A stretch of 64,000 bases of DNA from a virus. This document shows, in pieces, positions 5,511 to 63,734 of this stretch; within the stretch, counting starts at the first letter, position 1; every line of letters begins with the position of its first letter. The notes beneath the pieces were generated by a model. It was not told where the DNA came from and ran no database searches. It saw nothing but the letters and a program-made list of their open reading frames with translations. The translations under genes and the position numbers were made by a program. The stretch covers positions 1-64,000 of IMG/VR virus record IMGVR_UViG_3300045988_072133. The stretch is one strand, 5' to 3'.

Positions 5511-5516
5511 TAAAAA

Positions 5517-5553
5517 TCCCCGATAGGTTATACGCCTACCGGGGAATTTTTTT
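5517..5553. terminator. bidirectional rho-independent terminator between the convergent + and - gene blocks
   Basis: Stem CCCCGATAGG / CCTACCGGGG (9 of 10 bp) with 7-nt loop, followed by T7 on + strand and an A-tract (U-tract in - sense) on the other side. Confidence 0.6.
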
Positions 5554-5568
5554 AGACTTCAGGGAAAA

Positions 5569-16700: not shown

Positions 16701-19700
16701 TAACTCTAATTTATATTGTGCTAGCCGCTCTTGCTGATGTAAAGCTTTGATTCCCTTAGGATCATTCCAAGTTTCTAGAACTTTTTGTAACTTCTCAAGA
16801 TCAGAGAGATATTGCTCCATCAAATTAGGATCTGCGAAAGCTATAGAAGATAGAATTTCATTGTATCGACCTACAAACTCATTATGAGCAAACTCATAAG
16901 CCTCAGACACAATCTTAGCATTTTCTGACTGCAGTATATCAATTAGATTACCATTCTCCTTAAAGTACTGTAGGAACCAATAGTGTAAACTATTTACAGC
17001 GTCTGCTGTAGTAATAGCATCTAAACCTGGGATAACCTTATAGTGAGGAGATGTTGCTTTTAATGTAAGATAATCATTTGTAAGAAAATCTTTATTACGA
17101 ACTCTCTCTACAATAGATTGTATACTTTGAGTCCATTCCCTATTGGGTTTACCAAGATGCCGAATGCTATTATATAACCTTGTTAATTGATACTTGATAT
17201 ACTTAAAGATCTTCTTAATAAAGTTATTATCTTCATCCTCAGTTACCATAAAGTCTGCAAAAGCTTCAGCTAGAACCTCTTCAGCTAATTCTTCACTACT
17301 TAATTCAGGATATAAAGGTTTTAATGAATCAAAATTACTTTTATACTCATCATTATTGAGAGCTTCCCTTACTAGGTTAGCTTTCTCATCGGCTGTAAGT
17401 AAGCAGTCTAAAATAACGTGAAATGCCTCATGATATACAGACTCTGCGCCAGTACCTTGATATACAGTAACTACACTATCCTCAAATTTACCAACTACAT
17501 TCTTAGCAATAGCAGACTTAACAATCTTGAAGTCAATATCAGGAAACTTCTTCTTAAACCATTCTCCAGCTTTATCTAATTCCTCATTCGCGGAATTACT
17601 CATTTGTTCATATGTCCTGCGGAATTTTGTAACTGTGGAAATACGAACATTATCATTGGACTTCTGTGGTGTAGCGTTTAGATTGTTAGCCATATCTAGG
17701 GCTCTTTGAAGTTGAGCTCTAGTCTTAGGATCTGTAGTGCTTTCAAGCTGCCGCTGAAGTGCTGCTATAGCAGGATTACTTGACAGTGTAGTAGGTTCTG
17801 AAACAGGAGATTTCTTATCCTCTACAAGAGTAAGTTTAGCATTAAATTGAGTAGGATCCTTAACCCCCATTCTGTTAGCAAGGTATGCTTGAGCAGCATT
17901 CGCAACATCTGCTAAAGTAGCTCCCTCTCTGCCAGCGTATTGGTTAAGCTGATCTGCGACAACTATAGGGAAAGCATTCTCCTGATCAGAGCTAACAATA
18001 CTTCTACCATCATATTGAGCTTCAAAGTCAAACCTATTAATATTACCATTCGCAGGATTGGTAACCTCAAGTGTCATCTTTACAGGAGTGCCAGATCTAA
18101 TAGTATCAATAACACTTGCTAAAGACTTCTCCTTAGAAACCTCTTCTTTAGCTTCTGAGACTTCATCAGAAGTAACAGTTTCTACATTCAAAGGATCATA
18201 TGTCACATATCGCTCAGCATGTGCATAAGGACTATTAGGATCTACTACAAAGTCTACTAGATTTTCTCTAACAAAAGCATGGTAATTTTGGTATTTCTTA
18301 GCTCCTAATGTACCATCTTTATTAATCTTAGTAGGGAAGTAATAAGGATCTTTACTTGCAGGATTAATCTTTGAATAACGAGGGTTATAGAAAGCCTTAC
18401 TTAAGAAATTATTAACTTCTGTAAGAAACGCTTCATTAATAACATAGTTACCATTTTCATCTCTTACAGCAGCTTCAATATATCGTTTATCTCCAAACTT
18501 CTTATCCCCAATATTCCACCTTACAGTATTCTGACCATTCTCATCCTTAATATTATATAAAGTACGGGCAGGATCACCATGACTATTATACCTAAGTAAA
18601 TCTCGTAGAACTCCAAAAAAGTCGTAATGTATAAATTCTTTACCACTCCTAAAAGTATATTTACTATTACTTACAAAGGTCTTTCCTTTAATAGATTTAG
18701 CAATATAATGCCTAAATAAATCTACTAAAAACTGCCTAGTTTCTGCCTGAATAGGTACTGAGTTGGCTCTATAGAAATTATTATTCGTAGCATCATGGAT
18801 AGCCATTGTTCCTGCAGGAACAGTAAAGGTTTGGCCATTCTCTGTAATAATTCTACCAGTATTTGAAATATAAATCGTTAAAGTATTTATATCCATATTA
18901 GCAGGTAAACTCTCAGCTAAAGGCTTAAGCTGCGCAGGCTTCTTGATAACATCATCTTTATACTTATCATCAACGATACCCGCACTTGTTCCTTGAATGA
19001 CAACAGGTACACTTACACCATCTTGCAGATGTTCCCAAACATCTCTAATGTAAATAGCTCTATAGTAATCAAAGTCCTTCTGAGTACCATAGTACTTACC
19101 ATCAGCATTAGTTGTAGGATCTGCTACAGTAGTATAGATAGCTCTATTAGGATCAAACTCCTTCCCAATCGAGTTACCATCAGCATCTATATAATTTCCT
19201 TCGTGATCCGTGAGAATTAATCTCCCAGCAGTCTTACCTTCATATTTGAAAGGTACTATAATACCTCTATATTGAGAAGCATCATGTTTATCAAGGAAGT
19301 CAAACCATCGTATTTGATCCACATTGCCATTCTCACGGCTAGCTATATCAGAGCCTTTGGAACCTCGCCAGTAATTCTCTGCAGATCTCTTGGGAGGATC
19401 CCACAAAGCATCATTAGCTTCAGGAGTATCAAAGCTATCAGAACGAACAAATTCTATCTCCTGAGCATCGTTATTCTCAGGATTAGCATCCTTAATTTCT
19501 TCTCCAGATGCTTTAATAATCCTATCTTGAGCTCGATGATATAAATCATCAATTTCTTCGATAGCTTCTTCACTAAGAGCTGAGTCATTCTTATATCGCT
19601 CTCTCCAAATAGCTAGATCATCAAGACTCTTCAGTTCATCTACTTCCTTACGAAGCTCCTTACGTTCAGCAGGAGTAAAAAATTTGACTTCAGGAGTAGC

Positions 19701-22013: not shown

Positions 22014-22018
22014 AGTAA

Positions 22019-23734
22019 TTATTCATTAGCTTTAGACGATGTTTTACCTATAATCTGGTTAAGTATCGCCTGCTCATTCTTAACCGAGTTTACAAGTCCC
22101 ATAGATAATCTTCCAATAGCTTCTCCATATCCCTCAGGACGAGTTTCAAGAAGTTGATCAATCATTTCTTGAACCATGTTATACCTATCGGTAAAACTAT
22201 CACCAAGCATTTCAGGTTTAATAATAACCTTATTTTCACCGTTAGTTGCTACTATACCAAAACCTGGGGAATATTGATATCTTACATCCTTATTAAAGAA
22301 TTCCTCAGGTTTAAACTTACCATTATATCCTACAGTCCTTTCAGATCCAAATATGTTCTTATTAGGATTATATTCAGAGTCTAACAGAGGAAGCTCATCA
22401 TCAGTCTGAGTAGCAAAATAATCTTTAATAATATTAGTTAACATCTCAGAAGATGTGAGGTCAGGACTATAGAATTTGTATCTCTGAACTAAAGCATTTC
22501 TATCACTCTGTAATCCCTCTAATGCTTTATCAACATCGCTAGCTTCATACATATCTAAAGTCTCTAGCAGATCCTCATACTTTTGCATATCTCTAATAGC
22601 ATTGTTATACTTAGCAGAGTTTACAGGCTTAGAGCCTACAACGCTAGGATCTCCACTAGGAGCATAGGATTGTGCATCTCCCTTAGCTTTCTGAAGTCGC
22701 ATAATAATCTCATCACGAGATAACCCTACTCCCTCCTTCTTAAGATCATTTAAAGCCTTAATACGTTTATCAATAGCTTTACCCTCAGCAGTTTCTCCTA
22801 CCTTAGTATAGTTAAATCCTCTAATACTTGGAAGTCCTGCTTCCTCTTGACCCTTGGCAGCTAACTTAGCCCTTAATAAACTCATTTCCATTCCATATCT
22901 ATCAGACATATTTCCAAAAGATTTAGTTCCAAGAGCATGACTGAATGCACTAGCAGCATATTCATTAACTCTACGAGCTTCATTTGAATCGACTCCATAG
23001 TAATCGTATACACCTGTAGATGTAACAACGCTATCAGCAGCATCCTTAATAAGATTAGCAAGGGGACTTAATAATCTAGGATCAATATCCTTATACTGAC
23101 GACCCATTAAAGTTGCAATCTCTTCAGCAGTAGCCCCTGATTGAGCTATAGTAAAGTATTGGAAGGGAAGCCCAGTTCTAGCAAGCTGAGGAAGATTTTG
23201 AGAAATGTATTTACTAATAGGAATCATTGCTTGGCGAGTTCTCTCATAAATCTCTTGACCACTAATGGGATGAAGCTCATGAGAAGTAGGATCTGCAATC
23301 CATCTATCAAGTCCTACTTGCATAGGATCTTTTATTATGAGAGAAGGATTTCTTAGTTGTGCTTCCTTAGCAGCTTTTGCCCACTGTTCTCTATCAACAG
23401 CTGCCTTATTTAAAGGTAGAATATTATTAGTAAAGTCAGTCTTACGCTGAATTAATCTACGTCTAATACCAGGAGTTAAGCCATTCTTAGCAAGATCATT
23501 TATATCAGCTTGAACTGAGGATTGGAATTGCTGATTAGCTTGTATAGCAGCATCATCAATCCCAGGCTGGAATCTTGTAGCAGCATCAGCAGCTAAAGCC
23601 TGATTTTGAAGAAACTCCTCCTCCGCTTTATTATGCAACTGCTGCATATACATAGGAGCAACCATTAGCTCTTGCAAAGATGGTAACTTAAACTCCCCAT
23701 ATGTTATCTTATCATAAGCATTAACAGCAGCCAT
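22019..23734 (-). CDS. hypothetical virion/tail-associated protein (571 aa)
   Basis: ORF only; TAATG coupling to upstream gene. Confidence 0.4.
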   Translation of the reverse strand: MAAVNAYDKITYGEFKLPSLQELMVAPMYMQQLHNKAEEEFLQNQALAADAATRFQPGIDDAAIQANQQFQSSVQADINDLAKNGLTPGIRRRLIQRKTDFTNNILPLNKAAVDREQWAKAAKEAQLRNPSLIIKDPMQVGLDRWIADPTSHELHPISGQEIYERTRQAMIPISKYISQNLPQLARTGLPFQYFTIAQSGATAEEIATLMGRQYKDIDPRLLSPLANLIKDAADSVVTSTGVYDYYGVDSNEARRVNEYAASAFSHALGTKSFGNMSDRYGMEMSLLRAKLAAKGQEEAGLPSIRGFNYTKVGETAEGKAIDKRIKALNDLKKEGVGLSRDEIIMRLQKAKGDAQSYAPSGDPSVVGSKPVNSAKYNNAIRDMQKYEDLLETLDMYEASDVDKALEGLQSDRNALVQRYKFYSPDLTSSEMLTNIIKDYFATQTDDELPLLDSEYNPNKNIFGSERTVGYNGKFKPEEFFNKDVRYQYSPGFGIVATNGENKVIIKPEMLGDSFTDRYNMVQEMIDQLLETRPEGYGEAIGRLSMGLVNSVKNEQAILNQIIGKTSSKANE

Positions 23735-35554: not shown

Positions 35555-35599
35555 ATTAAATTAATTTAAATTATTAATTAGCTATAATAGCTTATAAAC

Positions 35600-35650
35600 T
35601 AAAAGTCCTCAAATATACGAAAAATTTTTCATATATCCAAGGACTTTTGT
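35600..35650 (-). promoter_or_regulatory. promoter-like element: TTGG-N19-TATATTTG (Bacteroidota-type -33/-7) flanked by inverted repeat AAAAGTCC/GGACTTTT, containing palindrome GAAAAATTTTTC
   Basis: Minus-sense ...caAAAGTCCttggatatatGAAAAATTTTTCgTATATTTGagGACTTTTag... within the 128-nt gap 35555-35682; also the AGCTATAATAGCT palindrome at ~35581-35593. Confidence 0.4.
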
Positions 35651-35682
35651 AAAAAAATAATAATTTCTATTATTTTTGGTAA

Positions 35683-38406: not shown

Positions 38407-38459
38407 AATTAGTGAAAGTTTTAAAAGTTAATTTGAACTAAATATAAATATATTTCGCG

Positions 38460-38503
38460 CAAAATATATATGTAATAGGACTACTGCCCGTAAGCAGTAG
38501 CCC
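38460..38503 (-). terminator. rho-independent terminator after the 354-aa virion gene
   Basis: Minus-sense GGGCUACUGC-UUACGG-GCAGUAGUCC (10-bp stem, 1 GU) followed by UAUUACAUAUAUAUUUU. Confidence 0.5.
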
Positions 38504-38576
38504 AATATTACTCTATTCAACTTTCACTAACTCTTATAAATATTACTTAATTATAGTAATTGCCCTAAACTATAAA

Positions 38577-41440: not shown

Positions 41441-41463
41441 AACTTCTCCCTTTATTTAAATGA

Positions 41464-41493
41464 AGGTAAGTGGGATTTAACTCCCACCTACCT
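41464..41493 (-). terminator. hairpin terminator/attenuator after putative MCP gene
   Basis: Minus-sense AGGUAGGUGGGA-GUUAAA-UCCCACUUACCU, 12-bp stem (1 GU), then UCAUUUAAAUAAA. Confidence 0.45.
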
Positions 41494-41505
41494 ATAAATG
41501 AGTTA

Positions 41506-44196: not shown

Positions 44197-44239
44197 ACTT
44201 CTCCAAAAATTTTAATCTTAATTAGTTAATCTCTTTACA

Positions 44240-44280
44240 TAGATTAATGCAAATATATGAATATTTTTTCATATATAAAA
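44240..44280 (-). promoter_or_regulatory. second copy of conserved promoter-like element ending in TATATTTG
   Basis: Minus-sense tatGAAAAAATATTCaTATATTTGcat; 21/24 identical to the element at 35610-35633. Confidence 0.4.
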
Positions 44281-44331
44281 TACTTTTAGAAATTCACTAA
44301 TAAATTACACCAATAATTACTACTTTATTTC

Positions 44332-45662: not shown

Positions 45663-47969
45663 TTACGAAGTAAGGGCTGTTCTTATAGCTCCTGTAGTAT
45701 TTTCATTCTGATCCGCTAGCTTAACTAGGGAAGGATATGCTACATAAAACGTACCCCAATATACTTCCTTACTGTTTACTGTTAAAGTATTTAAAGGCTT
45801 AAAATAATATTCAAAAACGGCTCCGGGAGGTATTAAAATACTTGTCAAGTTTACTGAATGATCTCCCCATGTTACTCCACATTTACACACGGAGCTACTA
45901 TGAATATTCACAGTAATAATAGCACTTCTTGATACATTCAATATAACTCCTCTATAAATAGAAGCATTATCTAATACTCCATTTGATTTGGCTATCAATA
46001 GCGTAGTTGATGCGTCTGCATCACTTGTGGTATATGCATTAAGGGAGTGAATGTTAGCATCTAATCCTGACAAGAAAATCTCTTGTAATTCTTGACGAAT
46101 ATTACCAGTAAGAGAAATATTACTAGCTACTAAATTATCCGCTGTAATATTTCCACTAGCATCAAACCTAATTTTACCAGCTGCTAAAAATCCTTCTCCA
46201 GTTTTAAAGTTAAATGCTATATTGGGAATAAATACTCCAGCAGTAGGATTAGTAGGCTCAAATGCTTCATAATTAGTAGAAATTTGACCACTAGCATCAA
46301 TACCTTGCTGGCTAAACATCCAATCTCCGGTAAATACAGCAGATCCTATAAGTCCATTAGATATAATACCAATCTTAGTAAATAATGCTTCAAATGCTTC
46401 TAATTTAATCCAACTACCACTCGTGTCAGTACTAGGAGTCTGATTATTATGTGCTGTACCAAGCCAAGTACCAACCTTATTTAGGACGTAATAATTATCA
46501 TCCCCAGAATCATATACATAAGGAGTTTTATTCGCATCACATATATATGTAACAGTTGTAGAATAAATCCCCTCAGGATATATTATTTGACCTTTAGAAC
46601 CAGGAGCACCAGGCATGCCAGGAGCTCCTTCTAAACCATTAGTACCACTTAGTTTAGCAGGGATAGACCATGCTCCATCTACAGAACCAACTCTGTCAGA
46701 ATTGTCTACATAGTTAATACGAGCCTGTATAAACCATATATAAGGATTAGCTTCAGTAACAGTAGGAACATTAGTACTCCATCCAGTCGGATTCCTATTA
46801 GATCCTAAATCTGTACTACCAGTATATGTAGATTCTGTACCAAGACAGTACTGTACTTCAATACCTACTCCAGGAATTCCTGATACACCATTTTTACCAG
46901 CAGGGCCAGGATCACCAGCTGGTCCAGTAGCTCCATCTTTCCCATCTTTTCCCGGAGGACCTTGTGGCCCTTCTGGACCGGCTTCTCCACTAATAACAGT
47001 AGGAGTAGACCAATTGGTATATAAGGTATCATTAGGATTAATAGTAGCTACAATCATCCATATAAACTCCTGGGTAGCCTTAACGGCAGGGATCATAGAC
47101 CAGCCTGTAGGAGTCCTCATAGTATTATCAAGAGCAGGAGGAGTAATATTACTGAAGTTTATTGCAAAGCGAAACTCTGTATATTTGCCATCCTGAGCAG
47201 TACCATCACGACCATTTACAGGTAATACTTCAGACCATTCAGATACTAGGCCTGTAGATCCTGTAACAGTACCTATACACTGCCACCAATTACCACTGGT
47301 AGTAGGATAGTCTTCCCATCCCTCAGGATTGGGATTTGTACTAGTAGGAGGCTCAGGTTTAGAGCTACTTAACTTATAGACATAAGTCTTGTAGTTGGGA
47401 ACACTTCCTGCAGGCCCTTTAGGACCTTCAGGCCCAGGTTCTCCTGGGTCACCCTTATCTCCTTTGGTACCAGTCATAAGAAGGGGATCACTCCACTCAC
47501 CTATTAATACTGTATCTTTAAAGGTTGCAGTAATAGACCAAATACTATCTGAAGTAGTATGAATTGGAACTACATTTCCCCAGATAGACCCTGGGTTAGG
47601 GTTGTCCTTAACAACAATAGGAGGAGTATTTGAAGTGCTAGTTTTCGAATACATTATTCTAATACTAGTACCATCAGAGCCCTTTGGTAATCCAAAACAG
47701 AATTTAAAGATATTTCCATCTAATGTTACAGAGGCGTCTGCTTGACTAGTAGATTCTACTTGATCTACAGTAGCTTCGAAATTTTCAGGAGTACTTCCAC
47801 CCTGACCTCCTACTAAAACCCACTTATCTTGAATACAATCAAAGGCTAGTAGTTCCCACAAAGGAGAACCACTAGTTGTAGGATGTAACCAAGTAAGATT
47901 AAGAGCTTCTTCAGGGGGGGGCTCAATACCTACCCAAATTTTTCCAAATCCATTTATATAATGATACAT
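45663..47969 (-). CDS. collagen-like tail fibre (about 768 aa from ATG at 47969; ORF track gives TTG start at 47978)
   Basis: Three G-X-Y runs: GDKGDPGEPGPEGPKGPAG (nt ~47401-47470), GEAGPEGPQGPPGKDGKDGATGPAGDPGPAGKNGVSGIPG (nt ~46861-46990), GLEGAPGMPGAPGSKG (nt ~46601-46650); N-terminal adapter motif shared with 51096-51971. Confidence 0.7.
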   Translation of the reverse strand: MYHYINGFGKIWVGIEPPPEEALNLTWLHPTTSGSPLWELLAFDCIQDKWVLVGGQGGSTPENFEATVDQVESTSQADASVTLDGNIFKFCFGLPKGSDGTSIRIMYSKTSTSNTPPIVVKDNPNPGSIWGNVVPIHTTSDSIWSITATFKDTVLIGEWSDPLLMTGTKGDKGDPGEPGPEGPKGPAGSVPNYKTYVYKLSSSKPEPPTSTNPNPEGWEDYPTTSGNWWQCIGTVTGSTGLVSEWSEVLPVNGRDGTAQDGKYTEFRFAINFSNITPPALDNTMRTPTGWSMIPAVKATQEFIWMIVATINPNDTLYTNWSTPTVISGEAGPEGPQGPPGKDGKDGATGPAGDPGPAGKNGVSGIPGVGIEVQYCLGTESTYTGSTDLGSNRNPTGWSTNVPTVTEANPYIWFIQARINYVDNSDRVGSVDGAWSIPAKLSGTNGLEGAPGMPGAPGSKGQIIYPEGIYSTTVTYICDANKTPYVYDSGDDNYYVLNKVGTWLGTAHNNQTPSTDTSGSWIKLEAFEALFTKIGIISNGLIGSAVFTGDWMFSQQGIDASGQISTNYEAFEPTNPTAGVFIPNIAFNFKTGEGFLAAGKIRFDASGNITADNLVASNISLTGNIRQELQEIFLSGLDANIHSLNAYTTSDADASTTLLIAKSNGVLDNASIYRGVILNVSRSAIITVNIHSSSVCKCGVTWGDHSVNLTSILIPPGAVFEYYFKPLNTLTVNSKEVYWGTFYVAYPSLVKLADQNENTTGAIRTALTS

Positions 47970-47974
47970 AATTA

Positions 47975-48802
47975 TCAAACTTTATTGTGTGCAGATTTGT
48001 ATATCCTCTTCACCGTTATTCTGCTACCGATAGGATAAGATTCACCACCACTTACTGTCATAGTTAATTTACTTTCTGTGCAACTAATAGTCATTACCCC
48101 TACATCAGATATTACCTCTGAATTAGACCCGCCAGAATTATAAAACCCACTAAATTTGATATCTGATCGGGATTCCCCTACTTTGAAATTAAAAGTACGG
48201 TTAACGTTAATGCCAGAGACAAAATATGTATTAGGATCACTTGGGTCCATTAAATCATATATTACAGTAATTAAATCTCCACTCTGTAAACTTTTAGAAA
48301 AGTCAAACATATCCGGAGCGTTGTCACCTAATTGAACGCTTCCTTCCCAAAGAGTAGTTCCAACAGGAACACCTGCCTCATCAGCAGGTAACTTTTGCCA
48401 TGAAGTATCGTAAAGACTTGTGGACTTAAATACGTACAATGTAGGGGTACCGTTAACCTTGTTATTAAGGTCCGTACCTATGTATAAAGCCATGAAAGAG
48501 CTTATCTTTATAGCGTACCCTTTTAAAGGCACATCGGGGCCGTTTGTTGCTGTCTTAGCACTTTCAAAAGTAACGAATTCTCCGACTTTTATATCGGAGC
48601 TGAATGTTATACTCTGGCCATTTAAAGTCCACGAGTTATTCCTAAAGTTAGTGACAACAACATACTTGACTCCTTCAACAGAAGCAAGATCAGCTATTTG
48701 TTGGGCAGTAATCTTCTCTGTGGCAGAGACCTGAAATTCCTCGTTACCAGTAGCAGCAGCTTTCTTGATAAACTCAGAAATATCTTTGTAAACATTTGCC
48801 AT
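47975..48802 (-). CDS. hypothetical tail/fibre-associated protein (275 aa)
   Basis: ORF only. Confidence 0.35.
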   Translation of the reverse strand: MANVYKDISEFIKKAAATGNEEFQVSATEKITAQQIADLASVEGVKYVVVTNFRNNSWTLNGQSITFSSDIKVGEFVTFESAKTATNGPDVPLKGYAIKISSFMALYIGTDLNNKVNGTPTLYVFKSTSLYDTSWQKLPADEAGVPVGTTLWEGSVQLGDNAPDMFDFSKSLQSGDLITVIYDLMDPSDPNTYFVSGINVNRTFNFKVGESRSDIKFSGFYNSGGSNSEVISDVGVMTISCTESKLTMTVSGGESYPIGSRITVKRIYKSAHNKV

Positions 48803-48820
48803 ATTTAATAATTATTTTAA

Positions 48821-49117
48821 TTAAAAACCAGCTTTATTTTTAGAGTATGCACTACATATATCTGCATAAGTGGCTATTACTAAGTTATCAGAGGTCTGAA
48901 TAACTTTAAGTGTTTTTGATGCTTGAGATCCAGAAGATCCTGTAGTTCTAAACGTAATAGTCTTCTCCCTATCTTCTCCAGTGCGGTTATAATCAGAAGT
49001 AATTCCTGTAGGGATTATAACTAAATTATCTTCAGTAATCTCACTATCATCCCACTGAAGATAAATAGAATCTGAAGCATCTATAGACCAAGGAATTGAA
49101 ATTGTCTGGATACTCAT
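48821..49117 (-). CDS. hypothetical protein (98 aa)
   Basis: ORF only. Confidence 0.3.
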   Translation of the reverse strand: MSIQTISIPWSIDASDSIYLQWDDSEITEDNLVIIPTGITSDYNRTGEDREKTITFRTTGSSGSQASKTLKVIQTSDNLVIATYADICSAYSKNKAGF

Positions 49118-49140
49118 AATACAATTTTACTAAGTTAAAA

Positions 49141-49180
49141 TAGGGAGGGGTGGCAGTTTCCCCCCCCCCCTATTAATAAT
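49141..49180 (-). terminator. G-homopolymer hairpin terminator (G11 ... CCCCUCCC) after Ig-like gene
   Basis: Minus-sense UAG...GGGGGGGGGGG-AAACUGCCA-CCCCUCCC-UAUUUUAACUU; plus strand shows C11 at 49160-49170. Confidence 0.45.
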
Positions 49181-49189
49181 CCTAATTTA

Positions 49190-49813
49190 CTAGGATACCG
49201 TAAACGTTGTGTTGGTTGTAACGTCAATGGTAACAGAACCAGTCTGCGGAACTGTAATGGTAGCGGTAGACAGGTTAAGATAAGCATCTCCAGCAGCCTG
49301 CTTAAGCTGAATAGTAGCAGTTTTGCTACCTGCAGAAGTAACTGTAATTTGCTGCGTACGTTCGCTAATAGTTGTATTAGCAGCGGCAGAAAGTGTCAGC
49401 TCAAAAGTATACTTAGCTACAGCACCAGGGTCACCAGTAATAGCAACACCATTGGTTACCTCTGTAGATGTGTTAACCTTATACTTAACCGAAGTAATAT
49501 CTGCTGTAATAACATTACCAGATCCTTTAGTAAAAGTAAGTTTATCCGAGTTGGAAGTACCTGTAATAACTACAGCTCCTCCACCCTTGACAACAGCCAT
49601 TTCAACTCCATCATCAAATGACACAAATTCAGCTGCAGCTTCAAGAGTTGCAGTGATTGTTTTATTCGGGGTAACGTCCTGAGCTGTGACTGTGAAGGTT
49701 GCATTCTTAGCAACACGATTACCTAAACTAGCGGGGTCTGCTGTAAAAGTCAGAGTAGTATTACCCGAGCCAGATGTAGGGTTAACAGAAATGTTTTGTT
49801 TAGTAACTGCCAT
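49190..49813 (-). CDS. Ig-like (BIG2-type) tandem-domain surface protein (207 aa), capsid/tail decoration candidate
   Basis: Two ~90-aa Thr/Val/Ala-rich beta-sandwich-like repeats (TFTVTAQDVTP..., VKYKVNTSTEVT...ITVTSAG); elevated GC. Confidence 0.5.
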   Translation of the reverse strand: MAVTKQNISVNPTSGSGNTTLTFTADPASLGNRVAKNATFTVTAQDVTPNKTITATLEAAAEFVSFDDGVEMAVVKGGGAVVITGTSNSDKLTFTKGSGNVITADITSVKYKVNTSTEVTNGVAITGDPGAVAKYTFELTLSAAANTTISERTQQITVTSAGSKTATIQLKQAAGDAYLNLSTATITVPQTGSVTIDVTTNTTFTVS

Positions 49814-49818
49814 AATTG

Positions 49819-50211
49819 TTAATCAATTGTAAATGTTAAATTAGTATATATTGTATTAGTATCAGTATAATTATTAAGTGCATTGAGAATAACATGTTCT
49901 TTCTCAATAGTTAAATAATCTTTTTCACCTAACCTAGTCCATAGCTCTTCACCATTATATAAAACTCTTCGTATAGTCCACGAAGGGGAATTAGCTTTTG
50001 AAGAAGACTCTTCAGCTAGATGACCTGCCTTAGTCTCGTCATAAAGACTATATACCCCATCATCATAAGTTGCAACAACTAAGTCTGATGTTACAGGTGG
50101 AGAGTAAGGCCATATTACTACTCCATTAAAGATAACTCTCTTAATAAGAGCATTATCCTTTGATGCTATTGTCTTACCATTAAAAGTAATAGTCTTTATC
50201 TTATGCCTCAT
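49819..50211 (-). CDS. hypothetical protein (130 aa)
   Basis: ORF only. Confidence 0.3.
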   Translation of the reverse strand: MRHKIKTITFNGKTIASKDNALIKRVIFNGVVIWPYSPPVTSDLVVATYDDGVYSLYDETKAGHLAEESSSKANSPSWTIRRVLYNGEELWTRLGEKDYLTIEKEHVILNALNNYTDTNTIYTNLTFTID

Positions 50212-50213
50212 AA

Positions 50214-51083
50214 CTACGTAGTTTCTTCCAACTCTATATATAGGATGTTATCTTGTTGCATGGGAGCTGTACCTTGTACTACTTCAACACCTTTGACTGT
50301 GTTAGATGCAACACTTTTAAATATGTTTATAGTTCGCCGTAATGTGAGTCCTGTGGGCAATCTATCATTATTTACGCTGATTTCATACTCCGAAAGATCC
50401 CCAGTAATACTCATTACAGAGAATATATAATCTTCTCTCCAGGCAACTATCTGGTAGACCTTATAAATAACAGGGGAGGTTTTACTGTCTGAGTATACCC
50501 AGAATACTGGGCTGCTTTTGTCAATTGTACCCATGAATCCTATAAGGTGACTCAGAAAATTATACATTGGCCCACCTTCAGACATATCATATTGCGAAAA
50601 GTCATCATCACCTTGGCCAATATACATGGGAGTTATTACATCATACAAGAAATTATAAAACTCATTGCCGCTTATAGCATCAATATTAATTCTCGCCTGC
50701 ATCTTCTGTGCCGTAGATAAGTTTTGCCGGACATATTTAATAGATTGAGCTCCCGAACCACCAAACGAAGCCCACGAGTTATCAATCCACATTAAAGCGT
50801 CATAAGCTACTGGGTCACTTCCTTCATTCTTAACAAGGTAGATTTTATTGGCCTTACCAGTCTCAGGAAGCATGGCTACAATCTCCACAGATGTAGCATT
50901 TTGAAGCGGTTCCGGAAGTAGATCAATAGGTAGCTTACCCTCCTTGTCAAGCTGGGGAGTTGCCTTATTGATGTCGGATTGAAACTTTTGTAGCTGTTCG
51001 TCGTAAATCTGACCTGTAAATGCAAGTTTACCGTCAGCAGTCTTAGCGAAAAGCAGGCCATAAATATTAATATAATCTTCCAT
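50214..51083 (-). CDS. fibre-associated protein (about 289 aa from ATG at 51083; TTG at 51092 in ORF track)
   Basis: 5' leader UUGAUUAUC-AUG nearly identical to that of the collagen fibre gene; N-terminus MEDYINIYG resembles MYHYINGFG. Confidence 0.4.
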   Translation of the reverse strand: MEDYINIYGLLFAKTADGKLAFTGQIYDEQLQKFQSDINKATPQLDKEGKLPIDLLPEPLQNATSVEIVAMLPETGKANKIYLVKNEGSDPVAYDALMWIDNSWASFGGSGAQSIKYVRQNLSTAQKMQARINIDAISGNEFYNFLYDVITPMYIGQGDDDFSQYDMSEGGPMYNFLSHLIGFMGTIDKSSPVFWVYSDSKTSPVIYKVYQIVAWREDYIFSVMSITGDLSEYEISVNNDRLPTGLTLRRTINIFKSVASNTVKGVEVVQGTAPMQQDNILYIELEETT

Positions 51084-51095
51084 GATAATCAAAAA

Positions 51096-51971
51096 TTATG
51101 CTATAACACCAACAAAAGTACCAGCTACAAACTTATTAGCACTCCTATAGCACTTATAGTTTCCCTTACCATTAACAGCAACTGTTACAGGAGCAGCCAT
51201 AGGTACATCGAAGCCTCCTGACTTCACGCTATTGATAGTCATATTCGACGGAACACACAGCCAAATATACTCATTAGCTTCAACCTCAATAGTAACATTG
51301 CCTGAAGGGGACGCTTTAATAGGCTGCTTCGTAAGAGATAGAACCTCGGACGATACTAAAGCATCCTTTATGGATGCACCAAAATACATTGGATAGTAGG
51401 CATTAACCGTAACTGAAGCGGTCTTGGTGATGCCTTTAATCATAGCCGTCATAGAATATGTTTGGGTATCCGAAATTGAATCCTTGATAGTCTTGAGCGC
51501 TTTATCAGAGGTAAGAACTTGACTACCTTTCTTTACAGAGATAGAATCAGGTTCGATTTCTTGATTATTAAACTTAGTAGACCAGTTAAGAGTTACCTGC
51601 GTTGAGACCCCTTTTTCAAATAAAGTCGGAGTACGGCTCATTGTCAAAGAGGTGTATTGAGTGAATAAAATTTGATTAATTTCATTAACATCCTCTGTAA
51701 GAGATTGTATTTGATCGTAGAGTACTACTTTTAATTCTTCTAAGGAATCTACCTTCTTCTCAAGTGAATATATAAGCTTTAATAATCCTTCTGCAGTAAG
51801 AGCTGCACTAGTAAGTACCTCCCATTCTTCTTTATAAATATTGAAAGTCCTAATCTCCCAAAGTACTCTTTTATCATCAGAAGGTTTTAGCCAAATTATA
51901 TTAGTACCATGAGAGGGTGGGAGTTTTGTTCCCACCCAAACTTGGCCTAGTCCAGTTCTATATTGATACAT
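51096..51971 (-). CDS. tail fibre paralog with shared N-terminal adapter (291 aa)
   Basis: MYQYRTGLGQVWVGTKLPPSHGTNIIWLKPSD...LWEIRTF aligns with collagen fibre N-terminus MYHYINGFGKIWVGIEPPPEEALNLTWLHPTT...LWELLAF. Confidence 0.45.
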   Translation of the reverse strand: MYQYRTGLGQVWVGTKLPPSHGTNIIWLKPSDDKRVLWEIRTFNIYKEEWEVLTSAALTAEGLLKLIYSLEKKVDSLEELKVVLYDQIQSLTEDVNEINQILFTQYTSLTMSRTPTLFEKGVSTQVTLNWSTKFNNQEIEPDSISVKKGSQVLTSDKALKTIKDSISDTQTYSMTAMIKGITKTASVTVNAYYPMYFGASIKDALVSSEVLSLTKQPIKASPSGNVTIEVEANEYIWLCVPSNMTINSVKSGGFDVPMAAPVTVAVNGKGNYKCYRSANKFVAGTFVGVIA

Positions 51972-51982
51972 ATATTATTTAA

Positions 51983-54175
51983 TTATATTGTAGGAGTATA
52001 AGCATCTATTGCCGTTGCAAGTGCTGTATTAAAAGCTGATTCAGTAGTATATTTAGTACCACCACCTAATTTATAAGCATTGAAAGCAGATTGTAAATAC
52101 ACGTCTTGACTATTTAACAAATTAGTGGTAGTATTAAATTGTACTCTGGTAGCTGTTATATTATCAGCATTTGCATTTTGTAGATTAAAGAAATAAATCG
52201 AATTAGTAGAAACAAATCCTCTAATACATACCTTATAACTATTATTAGTAGAATCTTCAATAATTAGAATATTAGCTTTACTAATACTCTCTCTAATATT
52301 TGTATCTGTTATAGTAGTATTTAACAATGAACTATCTATGACATATAAATTATTGTATAAAGTAAGGAAGCTTTTATTAAAACCAACAGTACTGTTTTTA
52401 CCTCCCTTACCTATATAATAGGTTGCCGGATCAGCATATGCAACCCTTATGTTACTACACTTTTTTACGTTTACATCAAAAATAATGCGGTTCATAGTAA
52501 TACTTCCATCTATACAGGACTCCATATTAAAGAAGTTAAGACTATTTCCTTTTAAAGCTCCCCTATTAAACACTAAAATGTTATTTTCTGTAACAACATT
52601 AGTAACAATAAGAGTAGTAGCATTTTGAACAGAAGAAGCTTCTGCATCAGTAAGAACAGTATTTAATTTAGACGAATCTATTACATAAGTATTTTCTGTA
52701 AGTTGAGCAACAAGCTCTTTATACATTGAATCTTTATTAGTTCTGGTACCACCTTTTATTCTATAATTAGTAAACATTATATCATCAAAATAAGCATTTT
52801 CAATAGACGACAATATATTAGATTCCAGTCTCAACAAAATATACTTCACTGATCCACTATTATTTATACAATTATAGTATATTATAGCAGTAGATTCATA
52901 ACCTCTTATAAAAATCTTGGTCTTACCATCACCTTCATCCAATATAAGGAAGGTAGCATTCTTAATATTCTCTAACTTATCACCACTATGTACTTTATTT
53001 AAATCAGAAGGAGTGATATAACAAGAATTCATGTTAACTAATCTTGCTACTTCTTGATTAACAGCATCAGCGTTTTTACCAGTGAAACCAAATTGAGAAT
53101 AAGCTCCATAAGGTAGAGTATAGTTCTTGGTATTTATTACCCATTTTTTAGTAGAAGTATTTACAGATAGTTCTTTATAGATTATTTTCTGGTCAGAGCC
53201 ATCTATAGCCCCAACCATAACAAACTGCAAATATGTATTTGTTTTTGATTTAACAACATAAATAAATTTACTATTAGGATAATTAGCATTGTCATTTACT
53301 AAAATTATAGATGCTTTTTTTATCTGTTCAATAGTTTCGTCATCTAAAGTTGTCCCTAAAGTACTATAATCAAGATATACAAAATCAGGAAATTCCTTAA
53401 CTTTTACAAGACTATAATTATCATCTTCTTTAAGAACTTTATAGGTTTGTAAGCACCCTTGATTATATATCCTAAAACTTCTTTCAACAGGATCTACATC
53501 AATTATAGGAGAATCATATTGAACATTATTATAAACCCAAAGTAAGTTAATCAATTGAAATTTATGTCTTTGATTAAGATAAGTATATAATACATTAGCC
53601 TTTGAAGTATTTGTAAATACAGATAAATCAAGAGGATCTGTAATAGTTCCTAAATTTACTGAAAGCGTCTTTGATTCAAGAAACGTTATTTTATCAGACC
53701 AAGTTTTATCTAAATCAACTAAAGTAGTGCCAGTCCAACGATAACTATGGTTTTGAGTAACACCCTCACCAATTTTTACGTATATCTTACCTTCTTCAGG
53801 ATTAATAATCGTCCAATCTTCTTCAGAAGTATTAGCTCCAAAGTCTACAAATTTCTTCGTATAATCAATTGTAGTCCCAAGAATAGCATGTTCAATATAC
53901 CAAATTTTATTAGTAAAACTTGGTTCATTTAATATCATTTCTACACTTGCACTTCCGGTAGTTATGGAATCAAATTCTATAACATCATCTACATAACTCG
54001 GTAATTGTTCGGCAGGAACTTTACTTCCTACAAGGTCAGCTTTAGTTCCCATAGCTTCTGTAAACTCTTCCTTAGTCACTCCATTATTCTCAATGTTCGT
54101 AAGTACTTGAGCTAGTTGAGGATTTTTAATATCATAGCCCTTTTCAAGCTGTAAAATAATTTTTTCGTTAGTCAT
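51983..54175 (-). CDS. repeat-containing fibre/appendage protein (730 aa)
   Basis: At least three ~65-aa internal tandem repeats (Y[VI][IT]xSxLNxxxTDxxxxxxxxxAxxLIxx...RGxxxxxSxxFFN) in the C-terminal half; Asn-rich. Confidence 0.45.
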   Translation of the reverse strand: MTNEKIILQLEKGYDIKNPQLAQVLTNIENNGVTKEEFTEAMGTKADLVGSKVPAEQLPSYVDDVIEFDSITTGSASVEMILNEPSFTNKIWYIEHAILGTTIDYTKKFVDFGANTSEEDWTIINPEEGKIYVKIGEGVTQNHSYRWTGTTLVDLDKTWSDKITFLESKTLSVNLGTITDPLDLSVFTNTSKANVLYTYLNQRHKFQLINLLWVYNNVQYDSPIIDVDPVERSFRIYNQGCLQTYKVLKEDDNYSLVKVKEFPDFVYLDYSTLGTTLDDETIEQIKKASIILVNDNANYPNSKFIYVVKSKTNTYLQFVMVGAIDGSDQKIIYKELSVNTSTKKWVINTKNYTLPYGAYSQFGFTGKNADAVNQEVARLVNMNSCYITPSDLNKVHSGDKLENIKNATFLILDEGDGKTKIFIRGYESTAIIYYNCINNSGSVKYILLRLESNILSSIENAYFDDIMFTNYRIKGGTRTNKDSMYKELVAQLTENTYVIDSSKLNTVLTDAEASSVQNATTLIVTNVVTENNILVFNRGALKGNSLNFFNMESCIDGSITMNRIIFDVNVKKCSNIRVAYADPATYYIGKGGKNSTVGFNKSFLTLYNNLYVIDSSLLNTTITDTNIRESISKANILIIEDSTNNSYKVCIRGFVSTNSIYFFNLQNANADNITATRVQFNTTTNLLNSQDVYLQSAFNAYKLGGGTKYTTESAFNTALATAIDAYTPTI

Positions 54176-54200
54176 AGTTAGGATTAATTATAATAATAAA

Positions 54201-54228
54201 GGGAGGAGCTATTGCCCCCCCCCTAACT
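54201..54228 (-). terminator. G-homopolymer hairpin terminator (G9 ... CUCCUCCC) after portal gene
   Basis: Minus-sense UAA-ACAGUUA-GGGGGGGGG-CAAUAG-CUCCUCCC-UUUAUUAUUAUAAUU; plus strand C9 at 54215-54223. Confidence 0.45.
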
Positions 54229-54230
54229 GT

Positions 54231-56627
54231 TTATTTACTAGTACTAGATGGTTTAGGCTTGGCTTTCTTAATAGCAAGATCTTTTTCTTTAATGTCTATC
54301 TCCTTTGATAACTTAGTCTTATCAAAAGCTAATCTTTCATTAAACTGCCTTATCTGTTCATCTAACTTCGCTCGTTCCATAGAGTTGTCTTGAACTTCTG
54401 GGACTTCATTCTCTGCATTTCCAGATTGTTTAATATGCTCAATAAGAATCTTAGTGTCATTATCGCGCTGATTAAGCATATCTTGGAAATTCATCTCAGC
54501 CTGCTTCATTTCCATCTGAGTCTGCATTTGCTGTTGTGCTATTTCTTGTTCCTGCTGAGCTTGTTCAGCTTGACGTTCTTGAATAGCTTGCTCGTCTTTC
54601 TCAATAGTCCTACGAATCTCTGACAGAGATGATGACGTATAAATCTTCATTATTGAAGAGAATGAGAGAGTTTGATTCTGCAAAGCAGCTTGTGCTAAAG
54701 CATCAAGTTTTGAAGCGAGATTCTGAGTTTCAGGAGAGGCATCTACTACAATTCCATAGTCGCTATCTGCAAAAGTGTCTCCATCAATTTCAAGAGATTT
54801 TATAGCTCCATCAGAGGTGATATACTGGAATTTCTTATTTCTACCTCTCATAGCTATTTTAGCTGTCTCTAAGAAACATTCAAGGGCTCTCCTTTTAACA
54901 TCATCGTGCATTGTAAATAACCATTCTGTAATATGAGAAGATTGTAAATTTGATCTTTCAACACCACCAACAGTTTCACGGTTACTAATCTGACCCTCTC
55001 GCTGTCGAGTAATACCAGCAACCTCTCCCATCTCATTTTTAATAAATTCTAGGAGATTAATGTGTTCCTGAATATAATTACCCTGTTCAGCATCTATAAC
55101 TCCATTAGACTGAATATTTAGAGCTCCTACAACCTTACCTTGAGCAGCTCCTCCATTTCCCTCCTTAAAGCTATCTGTAACAGCAACATGATTTACTTTT
55201 GCATAGTATAACCACTTGTCTATCTCCCAGCCTTTAGGAACCATAGCAAGATCTAGTTTTACAATTTTACCCCAGTTAGCAGCAATAGCTTTATTAAGCC
55301 TATCGTAGATAACGTCGTAAAAATAAGCAAAAGGCTTCATCATATCTACTAAAGAGAAAGGTCTAGAATCATTAAGGTTATACATAGATCCTACAATACC
55401 AAAATGACATCTAGATGGATTAGAAAGTCTATTATACTGTACTATCCTAGGTCTCATATTAACATAAATATCTGGACCTATTTTAGTACCTTCCCATGCT
55501 TCATTAATCCAAAAGATCTCTTCTTCTTCACCAGCTTCTTTATCTATAATGTAGGTTTCTGGATAAAAATCAAAGAGCTCTTCGCCAGTCTCAGGATCAT
55601 AAGATTTTACCTTCTTGATCTTTCTCTTACTCTTCCAATAAAGTCTTAATACTCTAATATTACCTTGGAGATCATAGTAGTTACTCGTTGCTGAAAATCC
55701 AGATTGTCCCATCAGTAGAAAATTCTCTATTACAGTACCTCCTGAAATATCTGTGCCATCGATCTCAGCAGTATTAATAAAGGCATTTCTTTCATCAATG
55801 TTGTACATAGAATCACTACTAAAAGTACTAGCTAGTTTATCTATACTATCAACATCTTTTTTAGATAGAACATCAAAGTAAGTATCTAAGATTCTACCTG
55901 GACTCCAAAAGTCTATAAGTATTATTAGATCTGCATCCTCAACTTTATTAGAAAAACCATTTTTGAAAATATGAACTTTTAAAGGATTAAGTCTTTCAAA
56001 AGTAGGCTCGCCCCCAACAATATCACATTGATAGATTTCCTCACCACAAATCATTGCATCCATAAACCCATCATTAAATATTCTGGGTATATTTAGCTCT
56101 TTCATGTAATGAGAAAGAACAGTACTAGCTCTCATTTCGATAATATCTTGCCATTGATAATCAAAATAGTAAGATAACTTATCTAGTTCTTTATTAAACT
56201 CCTCCTCTGACAAGTTCTCATCTTCTATCATAGCCTGAACTTGTTCTTGGAGCATTGCTAATTTACTATTCTCTATCTCTGAAATAGAATTGGGATTAGT
56301 TACAACAACTTTAAATTCAAATCTTCTCTTCGCTTCTTCTCCTTGGAGAACATGAAGCTTTGAGTTCATAATAGGGAAATGCTGAATAGATTCTGGAACA
56401 TATAGTGCATTGACATTGTCTGGATTAAGAATTAACTCTACATCTCTCATATCTAAAACACCATTTATGAGATTATAGTTAATTCTCTTCTTCAACAGAG
56501 AATTCCGCACCATATTGCCAAAATAGTAAGTTCTTTTGTCGGCCCAATCAAGATGCTGTTTTCTCCACTCCTTAGTTTTTTTACTATAAGACAACATCTG
56601 CGGGGGTAAGTTCTTTAAATCTATCAT
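54231..56627 (-). CDS. putative portal protein (798 aa)
   Basis: Immediately downstream of TerL; size typical of crAss-like portals; C-terminal Q/E-rich coiled coil; no motif verifiable by eye. Confidence 0.5.
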   Translation of the reverse strand: MIDLKNLPPQMLSYSKKTKEWRKQHLDWADKRTYYFGNMVRNSLLKKRINYNLINGVLDMRDVELILNPDNVNALYVPESIQHFPIMNSKLHVLQGEEAKRRFEFKVVVTNPNSISEIENSKLAMLQEQVQAMIEDENLSEEEFNKELDKLSYYFDYQWQDIIEMRASTVLSHYMKELNIPRIFNDGFMDAMICGEEIYQCDIVGGEPTFERLNPLKVHIFKNGFSNKVEDADLIILIDFWSPGRILDTYFDVLSKKDVDSIDKLASTFSSDSMYNIDERNAFINTAEIDGTDISGGTVIENFLLMGQSGFSATSNYYDLQGNIRVLRLYWKSKRKIKKVKSYDPETGEELFDFYPETYIIDKEAGEEEEIFWINEAWEGTKIGPDIYVNMRPRIVQYNRLSNPSRCHFGIVGSMYNLNDSRPFSLVDMMKPFAYFYDVIYDRLNKAIAANWGKIVKLDLAMVPKGWEIDKWLYYAKVNHVAVTDSFKEGNGGAAQGKVVGALNIQSNGVIDAEQGNYIQEHINLLEFIKNEMGEVAGITRQREGQISNRETVGGVERSNLQSSHITEWLFTMHDDVKRRALECFLETAKIAMRGRNKKFQYITSDGAIKSLEIDGDTFADSDYGIVVDASPETQNLASKLDALAQAALQNQTLSFSSIMKIYTSSSLSEIRRTIEKDEQAIQERQAEQAQQEQEIAQQQMQTQMEMKQAEMNFQDMLNQRDNDTKILIEHIKQSGNAENEVPEVQDNSMERAKLDEQIRQFNERLAFDKTKLSKEIDIKEKDLAIKKAKPKPSSTSK

Positions 56628-56654
56628 AGCATTAACTTAATTACATAATTTGTA

Positions 56655-56662
56655 CAAAGATA
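56655..56662 (-). promoter_or_regulatory. TAnnTTTG (-7-like) motif TATCTTTG upstream of portal gene
   Basis: Minus-sense ...aaTTTGaagataattactTATCTTTGtacaaatt...; -33 spacing not canonical. Confidence 0.25.
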
Positions 56663-56727
56663 AGTAATTATCTTCAAATTTCCAAGACGTTCAAAAGTTT
56701 ACTAATAGTTTTCATAAATATCTACTA

Positions 56728-59603: not shown

Positions 59604-59605
59604 AT

Positions 59606-59635
59606 CAAAAAAGCTCCCTACTTGTGATAGGGAGC
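59606..59635 (-). terminator. rho-independent terminator between GroES-like gene and packaging genes
   Basis: Minus-sense GCUCCCUA-UCACAAG-UAGGGAGC followed by UUUUUUG. Confidence 0.55.
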
Positions 59636-59641
59636 GTTAAA

Positions 59642-63642: not shown

Positions 63643-63661
63643 AAAAGTTAAATTTAATTAG

Positions 63662-63734
63662 CTGGGAGAACAGGGTTCGAACCTGCGTTACCTTGATTAA
63701 CAGTCAAGTGCCTAAACCATTCAGCCATCTCCCA
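63662..63734 (-). tRNA. tRNA-Asn (anticodon GUU), CCA not encoded
   Basis: Manual fold of reverse complement: acceptor TGGGAGA/TCTCCCA 7 bp; D-arm GCTG..AGGC; anticodon stem CTTGA/TCAAG with loop CTGTTAA (U33, GUU, A37); 5-nt variable loop; T-arm GCAGG-TTCGAAC-CCTGT; discriminator G. Confidence 0.75.

Follow-up and report, generated by a model that had tools for sequence, protein, structure and literature searches.

In Rho-independent terminators, a G/C-rich stem-loop located just past the stop codon of a co-oriented gene is followed directly by a U-rich tract, with which an A-rich stretch upstream of the stem can pair. Phage T7 possesses with T-phi an internal partial terminator of its late operon; this hairpin follows the major capsid gene, essential structural genes lie downstream of it and require read-through, and its presumed role is the setting of expression ratios. 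Long G/C homopolymers are known from a different context, as hypermutable poly-G/poly-C tracts are found in phase-variable genes of Campylobacter, Neisseria and Haemophilus and in the receptor-binding genes of Campylobacter phages. These contingency tracts sit in coding regions or promoter spacers, where the change of a single base acts as an on/off switch.

The element described here, a run of 11 G in the late region of a phage genome, can be compared with each of these systems. It possesses the stem-loop, the adjacent U-rich tract, the co-oriented position just past a stop codon and the upstream pairing of a Rho-independent terminator, but its 5' arm consists purely of G and is longer than its partner, its 3' arm is pyrimidine-only and engages in G·U pairing, and its U tract is short and interrupted; furthermore, it is an intra-operon element, so termination would probably be partial. 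As in the case of T-phi, the hairpin follows a putative structural gene and essential structural genes are located downstream, which would make read-through necessary and the setting of expression ratios the presumed role; T-phi acts on the single-subunit T7 polymerase, whereas the host multisubunit polymerase is expected to transcribe the G11 element. Like contingency tracts, it is a G/C homopolymer (8-11 nt) within an AT-rich genome and is polymorphic in length between near-identical genomes, but it is placed in what appears to be a buffered terminator arm. We consider it likely that G11 is the 5' arm of a Rho-independent, probably partial, terminator hairpin formed by coding-sense RNA from the late structural operon, and that its poly-G character is wobble-derived. 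The element would then be an ordinary-looking terminator hairpin with a slightly unusual arm.

The G11 tract and its genomic setting

The window, i.e., the entire stretch of 64,000 nucleotides analyzed here, has a GC content of 36%, and nearly all of its genes are on the minus strand. Its open reading frames include giants of 3764, 2084 and 1715 amino acids, a terminase-sized ORF and a major-capsid-sized ORF. The portal ORF (54231-56627, minus strand) matches PHROG portal families, and its product is 94.8% identical to the portal of the uncultured phage cr108_1 (Crassvirales, Steigviridae, Pipoluvirus), a relationship that identifies the source as a crAss-like gut phage and places the tract within its late structural module. 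The portal-to-tail-fibre stretch has the appearance of a mosaic tail/receptor module. A megablast search with window positions 48000-50500 against GenBank phages gave no match, and the relatives considered below came from protein-level searches.

The tract lies within the 72-nt gap that separates a 207-aa gene from a 98-aa gene (Table 1). The first-pass annotation had called the upstream gene Ig-like; it bears only a weak likeness to BACON and calycin domains, with matches below the Pfam cut-offs, and its homologues are annotated as lipocalin-like/BACON proteins (e.g., "lipocalin-like, BACON" in cr111_1). The designation of the downstream genes as fibre genes is correct for the 768-aa collagen-repeat protein.

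The C11 run on the plus strand is real and far above chance expectation. C runs in the window reach a maximum of 5 (six cases) and then only 9 and 11, and G runs reach a maximum of 5 before a single run of 8. The only three G/C runs of at least 6 are hence C11 and C9 (54215-54223), both intergenic, and G8 (47914-47921), which is found inside the tail-fibre gene; a run of at least 9 G occurred in none of 100 dinucleotide-preserving shuffles. The initial statement that this homopolymer is improbable by chance therefore stands, as does its exact position. The plus strand reads ...ATAGGGAGGGGTGGCAGTTT-CCCCCCCCCCC-TATTAATAA..., and the minus strand reads TAG TAA ATTAGGATTATTAATA G11 AAACTGCCA CCCCTCCC TATTTTAACTTAGTAAAATTGTATT ATG, precisely the layout of G11, arm and tail directly 3' of the stop codon that had been claimed. 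The G tract begins 19 nt past the TAG of the 207-aa ORF, and the 3' arm of the hairpin ends 25 nt ahead of the ATG of the 98-aa ORF.

Table 1. Location of the features discussed in the text and stem families found in relatives.
Feature	Position	Strand	Remarks
G11 tract, 5' arm of the hairpin (C11 on the plus strand)	49160-49170	-	From sequence, run census and fold
Loop AAACUGCCA	49151-49159	-	Its CC (49152-49153) takes up two surplus G in the MFE structure
Pyrimidine-only 3' arm CCCCUCCC	49143-49150	-	C/U variants in relatives: CUCCUCCC, CUUCCCCC, CCUUCCCC
U-rich tail UAUUUUAACUU	49132-49142	-	Abuts the stem
Outer helix, upstream A/U-rich half (AUUAGG.UUA..AAUA)	49171-49186	-	Pairs with 49129-49142
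Upstream gene, 207 aa	49190-49813	-	Ends TAG then TAA; weakly BACON/calycin-like
Downstream gene, 98 aa	48821-49117	-	Opens the block 98 aa / 275 aa / 768-aa collagen-repeat tail fibre
Sibling hairpin after the portal gene	54189-54224	-	A-G9 (54215-54223), CAAUAG, CUCCUCCC (54201-54208), then UUUAUUAUUAUA
Promoter-like motif (..TTGGAAATTTGAA..TATCTTTG)	56628-56727	-	Upstream of the portal gene; likely start of the unit with both poly-G hairpins
Promoter-like motif (TATATTTG)	44197-44331	-	Putative start of the following unit (386-aa gene and major capsid protein)
Promoter-like motif, third copy	35555-35682	-	Same ~60-nt motif
Stem family	Gap after the 207-aa homologue in relatives		G8-11 with C/U arm (G tract/CCUCCC)
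Stem family	Gap after the 207-aa homologue in relatives		G6-11+CAGAGGC..GCCUCUCCUCCC
Stem family	Gap after the 207-aa homologue in relatives		GGGGGGAGGGGC..GCCUCUCUCCCC
Stem family	Gap after the 207-aa homologue in relatives		CCAUACGGGG..CCCCGUAUGG
Stem family	Gap after the 207-aa homologue in relatives		UCCCGGAGG..CCUCCGGGA
Stem family	Gap after the 207-aa homologue in relatives		ACGAAGGCUGU..ACAGCCUUCGU

A 50-aa ORF on the minus strand (49135-49287) runs through the tract; it was rejected as coding because the tract alleles differ by non-multiples of three, and the tract is also preceded by two stop codons. As to gene content, the portal-to-fibre genes of the window (48821-54175) and of cr108_1 (positions 14452-22077 of locus L045) are wholly different in number and size, and cr108_1 is without a homologue of the 207-aa gene. 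A tRNA-Asn (GTT) is present at window positions 63661-63734 on the minus strand; in cr108_1, too, there is a tRNA-Asn, situated some 7 kb upstream of the portal gene.

Predicted structure, strand specificity and conservation

On the minus-strand RNA, G11-AAACUGCCA-CCCCUCCC is followed by UAUUUUAACUU, and a 63-nt segment has a folding energy of -28.6 kcal/mol (z = -3.7), which was matched by 1 of 200 shuffles. The local G11 hairpin alone has a predicted energy of -24.5 kcal/mol, and the outer helix brings it to the value just given. In the MFE structure, 10 of the 11 G are paired, eight with CCCCUCCC (including one G·U) and two with the CC of the loop, and the stem is extended by four A-U pairs (AAUA/UAUU) plus a further A/U-rich outer helix that can form only in read-through RNA. 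The tail has U in five of its first six nucleotides and in 7 of 11 overall; it is interrupted by A and weaker than a canonical U tract. That the G tract pairs with a pyrimidine arm (one G·U) and that a U-rich tail follows in coding orientation, just past a gene, had been proposed in the first-pass annotation, and the fold bears it out. The element thus combines a stable sense-strand stem-loop and an immediately 3' U-rich tract with an intergenic, co-oriented position after a stop codon and a structure that is kept despite sequence change. A simple terminator scan flagged the G9 sibling and passed over the G11 hairpin because its loop exceeds 8 nt or a bulge is present. An Rfam search with the element returned no credible family, only chance matches far below threshold (e.g., STnc400 with 23.9 bits against a gathering score of 80 bits).

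The sibling hairpin is located directly after the portal gene and has the same build, G9-CAAUAG-CUCCUCCC-UUUAUUAUU, with the tail UUUAUUAUU likewise interrupted by A; its z-score is -3.6 in the sense and -1.1 in the antisense orientation. The existence of this second copy strengthens the reading of the G11 element as a terminator-type hairpin, and relatives keep a strong hairpin at both the post-207-aa and the post-portal position. Further terminator-like hairpins of the window include a conventional one at 59604-59641 (GCUCCCUA..UAGGGAGC, then U6), one at a convergent gene junction (5511-5568), and one after the major-capsid-sized gene (41441-41505) that is conserved in cr108_1. Another terminator-like hairpin, GGGCUACUGC..GCAGUAGUCC, is present within 38407-38576.

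The plus-strand fold of the G11 element reaches only -19.9 kcal/mol (z = -1.8, against -3.7 for the sense strand), and the hairpin is therefore stable mainly in the coding-sense RNA, in support of its initial interpretation. Of 20 hairpins taken from the two sites, 19 fold better in the coding sense than in antisense, by 3-12 kcal/mol and because of the G·U pairs, which argues that the element works as sense RNA and not as a DNA cruciform. Asymmetry of this kind offers a cheap general test that might be used to tell an RNA-level hairpin from a DNA-level repeat and that also indicates the direction of transcription.

Comparison with relatives was based on 44 viral-contig loci retrieved with the 207-aa protein. 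A strong hairpin is present at every one of these loci that has a gap after the 207-aa homologue (about 20 distinct sequences, z-scores from -1.7 to -6.8); one distant clade has neither a gap nor a hairpin there. At least six unrelated stem families occupy this orthologous position (Table 1). We regard such sequence turnover with retained structure at one junction as the strongest evidence for a function that is probably structure-based, and the conservation of position despite unrelated stems adds to the terminator-type reading. Among ten close alleles, 200 of 200 stem cells are paired, compared with 38-69% in slid-register controls, and all cells of the outer helix (49171-49186 / 49129-49142) are paired as well. 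All seven variable stem positions in these alleles retain pairing (G-C to G-U, A-U to G-U, or U-G to U-A). A pairing-count shuffle control is uninformative for the G11 element because a G arm pairs with any pyrimidine; likewise, two-sided compensatory change was not seen within the close group, and none is possible with a homopolymer arm.

Several related clades carry a hairpin at this position that is followed by AACAAUUAAAC or AUCAAUAAUG, hardly a U tract, and in these clades the hairpin may have been conserved for RNA stability or processing and not for termination in the classical sense. One might extend this notion to the G11 element itself, with the hairpin blocking 3'-5' exonucleases or marking an RNase site so that different half-lives would arise along one late transcript. 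The retention of the hairpin even where a U tract is missing, as in UCCCGGAGG..CCUCCGGGA-ACAAUUAAAC, speaks for such a role, and so does the outer helix, which could form only in read-through RNA and yet is fully paired in the ten alleles. In the poly-G clades, however, the U-rich tail is always immediate (UAUUUU, AUUUUU or UUUAUUAUU), and the same architecture occurs elsewhere with long terminator-type T runs. We therefore regard a stability or processing element as a rather unlikely primary explanation, with the proviso that the stability and terminator roles are compatible with each other. Comparative structure lends good support to the terminator reading; that transcripts actually end here, and that they do so with partial efficiency, is what we infer from it.

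Origin and length variation of the poly-G arms

The post-portal hairpin suggests how a poly-G arm may arise. In cr108_1 and five contigs, its 5' arm is GGGGAGGAG, which forms a perfect Watson-Crick stem (GGGGAGGAG-GCAAAUR-CUCCUCCC), and in the window and seven others the 5' arm is G8-G9 against the very same CUCCUCCC. A second lineage has GGGGAGAGA in two loci (L096 and L097) where a third (L086) has G9, and the 3' arms (CCCCUCCC, CUCCUCCC, CUUCCCCC, CCUUCCCC and CCUCCUUCCUC) differ only by C/U. The best explanation for the poly-G arm is descent from a purine-rich arm through changes that wobble pairing tolerates, and we infer the following route: since G can pair with C as well as with U, the 5' arm would tolerate A-to-G changes and the 3' arm exchanges between C and U, G-to-A changes opposite C would not be tolerated, and arms facing pyrimidines would therefore drift towards poly-G. 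The neutral changes would eventually create a homopolymer, and the homopolymer would begin to slip in length, with surplus G buffered since the 3' arm sets the stem. This wobble argument could account for long G runs in AT-rich phage genomes without any special function, and, as purine arms may drift to poly-G and slip harmlessly, caution seems advisable when such tracts are read as switches.

Poly-G arms also appear to be commonplace in terminator-like hairpins of unrelated viral contigs, many of which resemble textbook terminators, so that the rarity of the tract in the window loses its value as a mark of something special. A pattern scan of viral contigs (G8+..CCTCCC..TTT) gave at least 119 loci from many environments with GC contents of 0.29-0.62; the raw match count is not evidence by itself because chance matches are expected in so large a collection, and only the quality of fold and T run was used. 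Among the matches listed, 69 of 91 unique sequences fold at -12 kcal/mol or better, and 54 of the 91 have a T run of at least 5, though the pattern demanded only TTT; an example is GGGGGGGGGCUUCGGCCUCCCCUUUUUUUUU. These hairpins share with the G11 element a tract of G8-12, a short loop, a ..CCUCCC.. arm and a T run, but they come from many environments, and most of their T runs are longer and uninterrupted. A literature search on terminators or homopolymers in crAss-like phages found nothing relevant. Coding poly-G is also present among the relatives, as G10 in the upstream gene of one locus (L009, 1779-1788; a GGSGGGD stretch) and as G8 in the 98-aa homologue of another (L043, 3675-3682).

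Exact-flank scans yielded 14 alleles of the window-type hairpin, some of which may be the same assembly in two collections. G8, G9, G10 and G11 all occur on the CUCCUCCC background with 400-nt flanks that are 99.5-100% identical, and the tract is therefore apparently more mutable than its surroundings. Its length thus varies across isolates instead of being invariant, in agreement with the original description of a slippage-prone homopolymer. The window (G11-AAA) and its nearest relative (G10-AAAA) differ by a single G/A change, cr111_1 from GenBank has G10, and a sister group has G6, G9, G10 or G11, with a range of G6-G11 in the wider group. Some of the differences in tract length may be homopolymer miscalls in low-coverage assemblies. 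Contig IMGVR_UViG_3300045988_054273 (L005/L052) has the shortest allele at both tracts (G8 and G8), and its near-identical relatives have G11 and G9; this may reflect either real co-variation or a systematic homopolymer under-call in the assembly.

The first-pass annotation went further and proposed that length variation could tune read-through. In such a mutation-tunable attenuator, slippage of the G tract would alter hairpin strength and thereby, at the level of the population, read-through into the tail-fibre genes. The length range on near-identical flanks, the contrast between G6 and G10-G11 within the group of loci L007, L010, L008 and L025, the variable nature of the tail-fibre module downstream, and a slight change in predicted energy on the same arm (-19.5 kcal/mol for G8 versus -22.9 kcal/mol for G11) are all in keeping with this idea. 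However, the 3' arm of 6-8 pyrimidines fixes the stem, and an in silico length series falls steeply from G3 (-8.2 kcal/mol) to G8 (-20.2 kcal/mol) and is flatter thereafter (G9, -21.5; G11, -24.5; G12, -25.0 kcal/mol), with the flattening setting in from G8-G10. According to this modelling, surplus G would shift the register or lengthen the loop, the 8-nt pyrimidine arm setting the stem. All natural alleles keep the hairpin (-18.5 to -31.3 kcal/mol), none is shorter than its own 3' arm, and no off state was seen among them; even the G6 alleles retain -22.8 and -27.4 kcal/mol via an inner stem. The possible miscalls, and the contig that is shortest at both tracts, also count against the idea. 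A tunable attenuator is consequently conceivable but unsupported, given a stem fixed by the 3' arm and a strong hairpin in all alleles, and we hold it to be improbable. Length differs between related phages, though probably to little effect; a graded influence is conceivable, and nothing indicates a switch. If termination efficiency were to track tract length after all, a gut phage would here offer a rare example of homopolymer-tuned attenuation; the data give no sign of this. Measured against contingency homopolymers, the tract has the length (G11, where about 7 or more are needed to slip) and the polymorphism among near-identical genomes, but instead of occupying a reading frame or promoter spacer it forms the 5' arm of a hairpin located past two stops.

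A broader version of the contingency idea would make both poly-G arms hypermutable rheostats. Their slippage, with occasional rare contractions below the length of the pyrimidine arm, would give rise to phage subpopulations that differ in read-through into the tail-fibre block, and together with a C8/C9 tract in the fibre gene the arms would form a bet-hedging contingency system for host range; we regard this scenario as quite doubtful. The fibre tract itself is the G8 of the plus strand (C8 on the minus strand) at 47914-47921, which corresponds to codons 17-19 (E-PPP-E) of the collagen-repeat tail-fibre gene (45663-47969, minus strand). Relatives of this gene, including that of cr108_1, keep CCC CCC CCC (C9) even though the genome is AT-rich. 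Phase-variable receptor-binding genes classically have this layout; out-of-frame C8/C9 alleles were absent from the window and nine relative loci, not all of which are independent assemblies.

Much the same tract might be viewed as a DNA-level or G-rich structure, be it a G-quadruplex, an i-motif, a signal for replication or packaging, or a hotspot of recombination where two modules meet. The hairpins do lie within the putative mosaic tail module, and G11 alone could make a two-tetrad fold (GG-G-GG-G-GG-G-GG), but four runs of at least 3 G are absent from either strand (one G run on the minus strand; G3, G4 and G2 on the plus strand), and the G8-G10 alleles are unable to form even the two-tetrad fold, yet keep the hairpin. 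Moreover, the G·U pairs make the structure strand-specific, unlike a DNA cruciform, and the genes flanking the G11 site are homologous across relatives, so the site is not a module junction. The G-rich structural element named as an option in the first-pass annotation is thus disfavoured and very improbable. A sequencing or assembly artefact, such as poly-G from two-colour chemistry, is hardly credible: although errors are frequent in homopolymers and both tracts are shorter in one contig, the G11 tract is internal and matched by a complementary arm, is found in at least 14 assemblies including GenBank cr111_1, and recurs at an orthologous second site.

Promoter-like motifs and the presumed transcription unit

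Three copies of a ~60-nt motif (TTAGTRAAYTT..TTGGAWATWTGAA..TAYMTTTG) that ends in TAnnTTTG, a box resembling the -7 element of Bacteroidetes, are present at 56.7, 44.3 and 35.6 kb of the window, and cr108_1 has conserved those preceding the portal gene and the 386-aa gene. The three copies are probably late or middle promoters of the host polymerase, an assignment made purely by motif similarity (the -7-like box and the aligned 60-nt motif). The full Bacteroides pattern TTTG-N15-23-TAnnTTTG is not enriched in the window (2 found versus 2.5 expected), and no promoter-like motif follows either of the poly-G hairpins. Middle and late transcription of phi14:2, a crAss-like phage, is severely inhibited by rifampicin, which points to the host polymerase, and the authors of that study suppose the same of other crAss-like phages (10.1101/2020.03.07.982082). 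By analogy, the host multisubunit polymerase is expected to transcribe the late operon of the phage studied here.

The simplest model for the terminator reading is a single unit that extends from the portal gene to about 44.3 kb and contains two internal hairpins. Host RNA polymerase would start at the promoter-like element upstream of the portal gene, would meet the G9 hairpin after this gene and then the G11 hairpin after the 207-aa gene, and would encounter in each case a 3' arm made up of pyrimidines only and, behind it, a U tract interrupted by A. The hairpins would stop only part of the transcripts, or would also protect the 3' ends of the stopped ones, and the expression of the distal genes would be lowered. 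Partial termination seems most likely because no promoter-like motif is present after the hairpins and essential tail-fibre genes are located downstream; with tail-fibre and lysis-related genes beyond them, the hairpins would have to be leaky. The main use of these results is in annotation, as the three promoter-like elements and the two hairpins, likely internal terminators or attenuators, sketch the transcription units of an uncultured member of the Steigviridae.

The third promoter-like copy overlaps with a structure of its own, a 24-bp A/U-rich hairpin with several G·U pairs at 35590-35655 on the minus strand, which folds at -24.8 kcal/mol (z = -7.6) in the sense and at -15.4 kcal/mol in the antisense orientation. 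Its 3' arm holds the promoter-like box TATATTTG, and a role as terminator, operator or 5'-UTR structure is conceivable.
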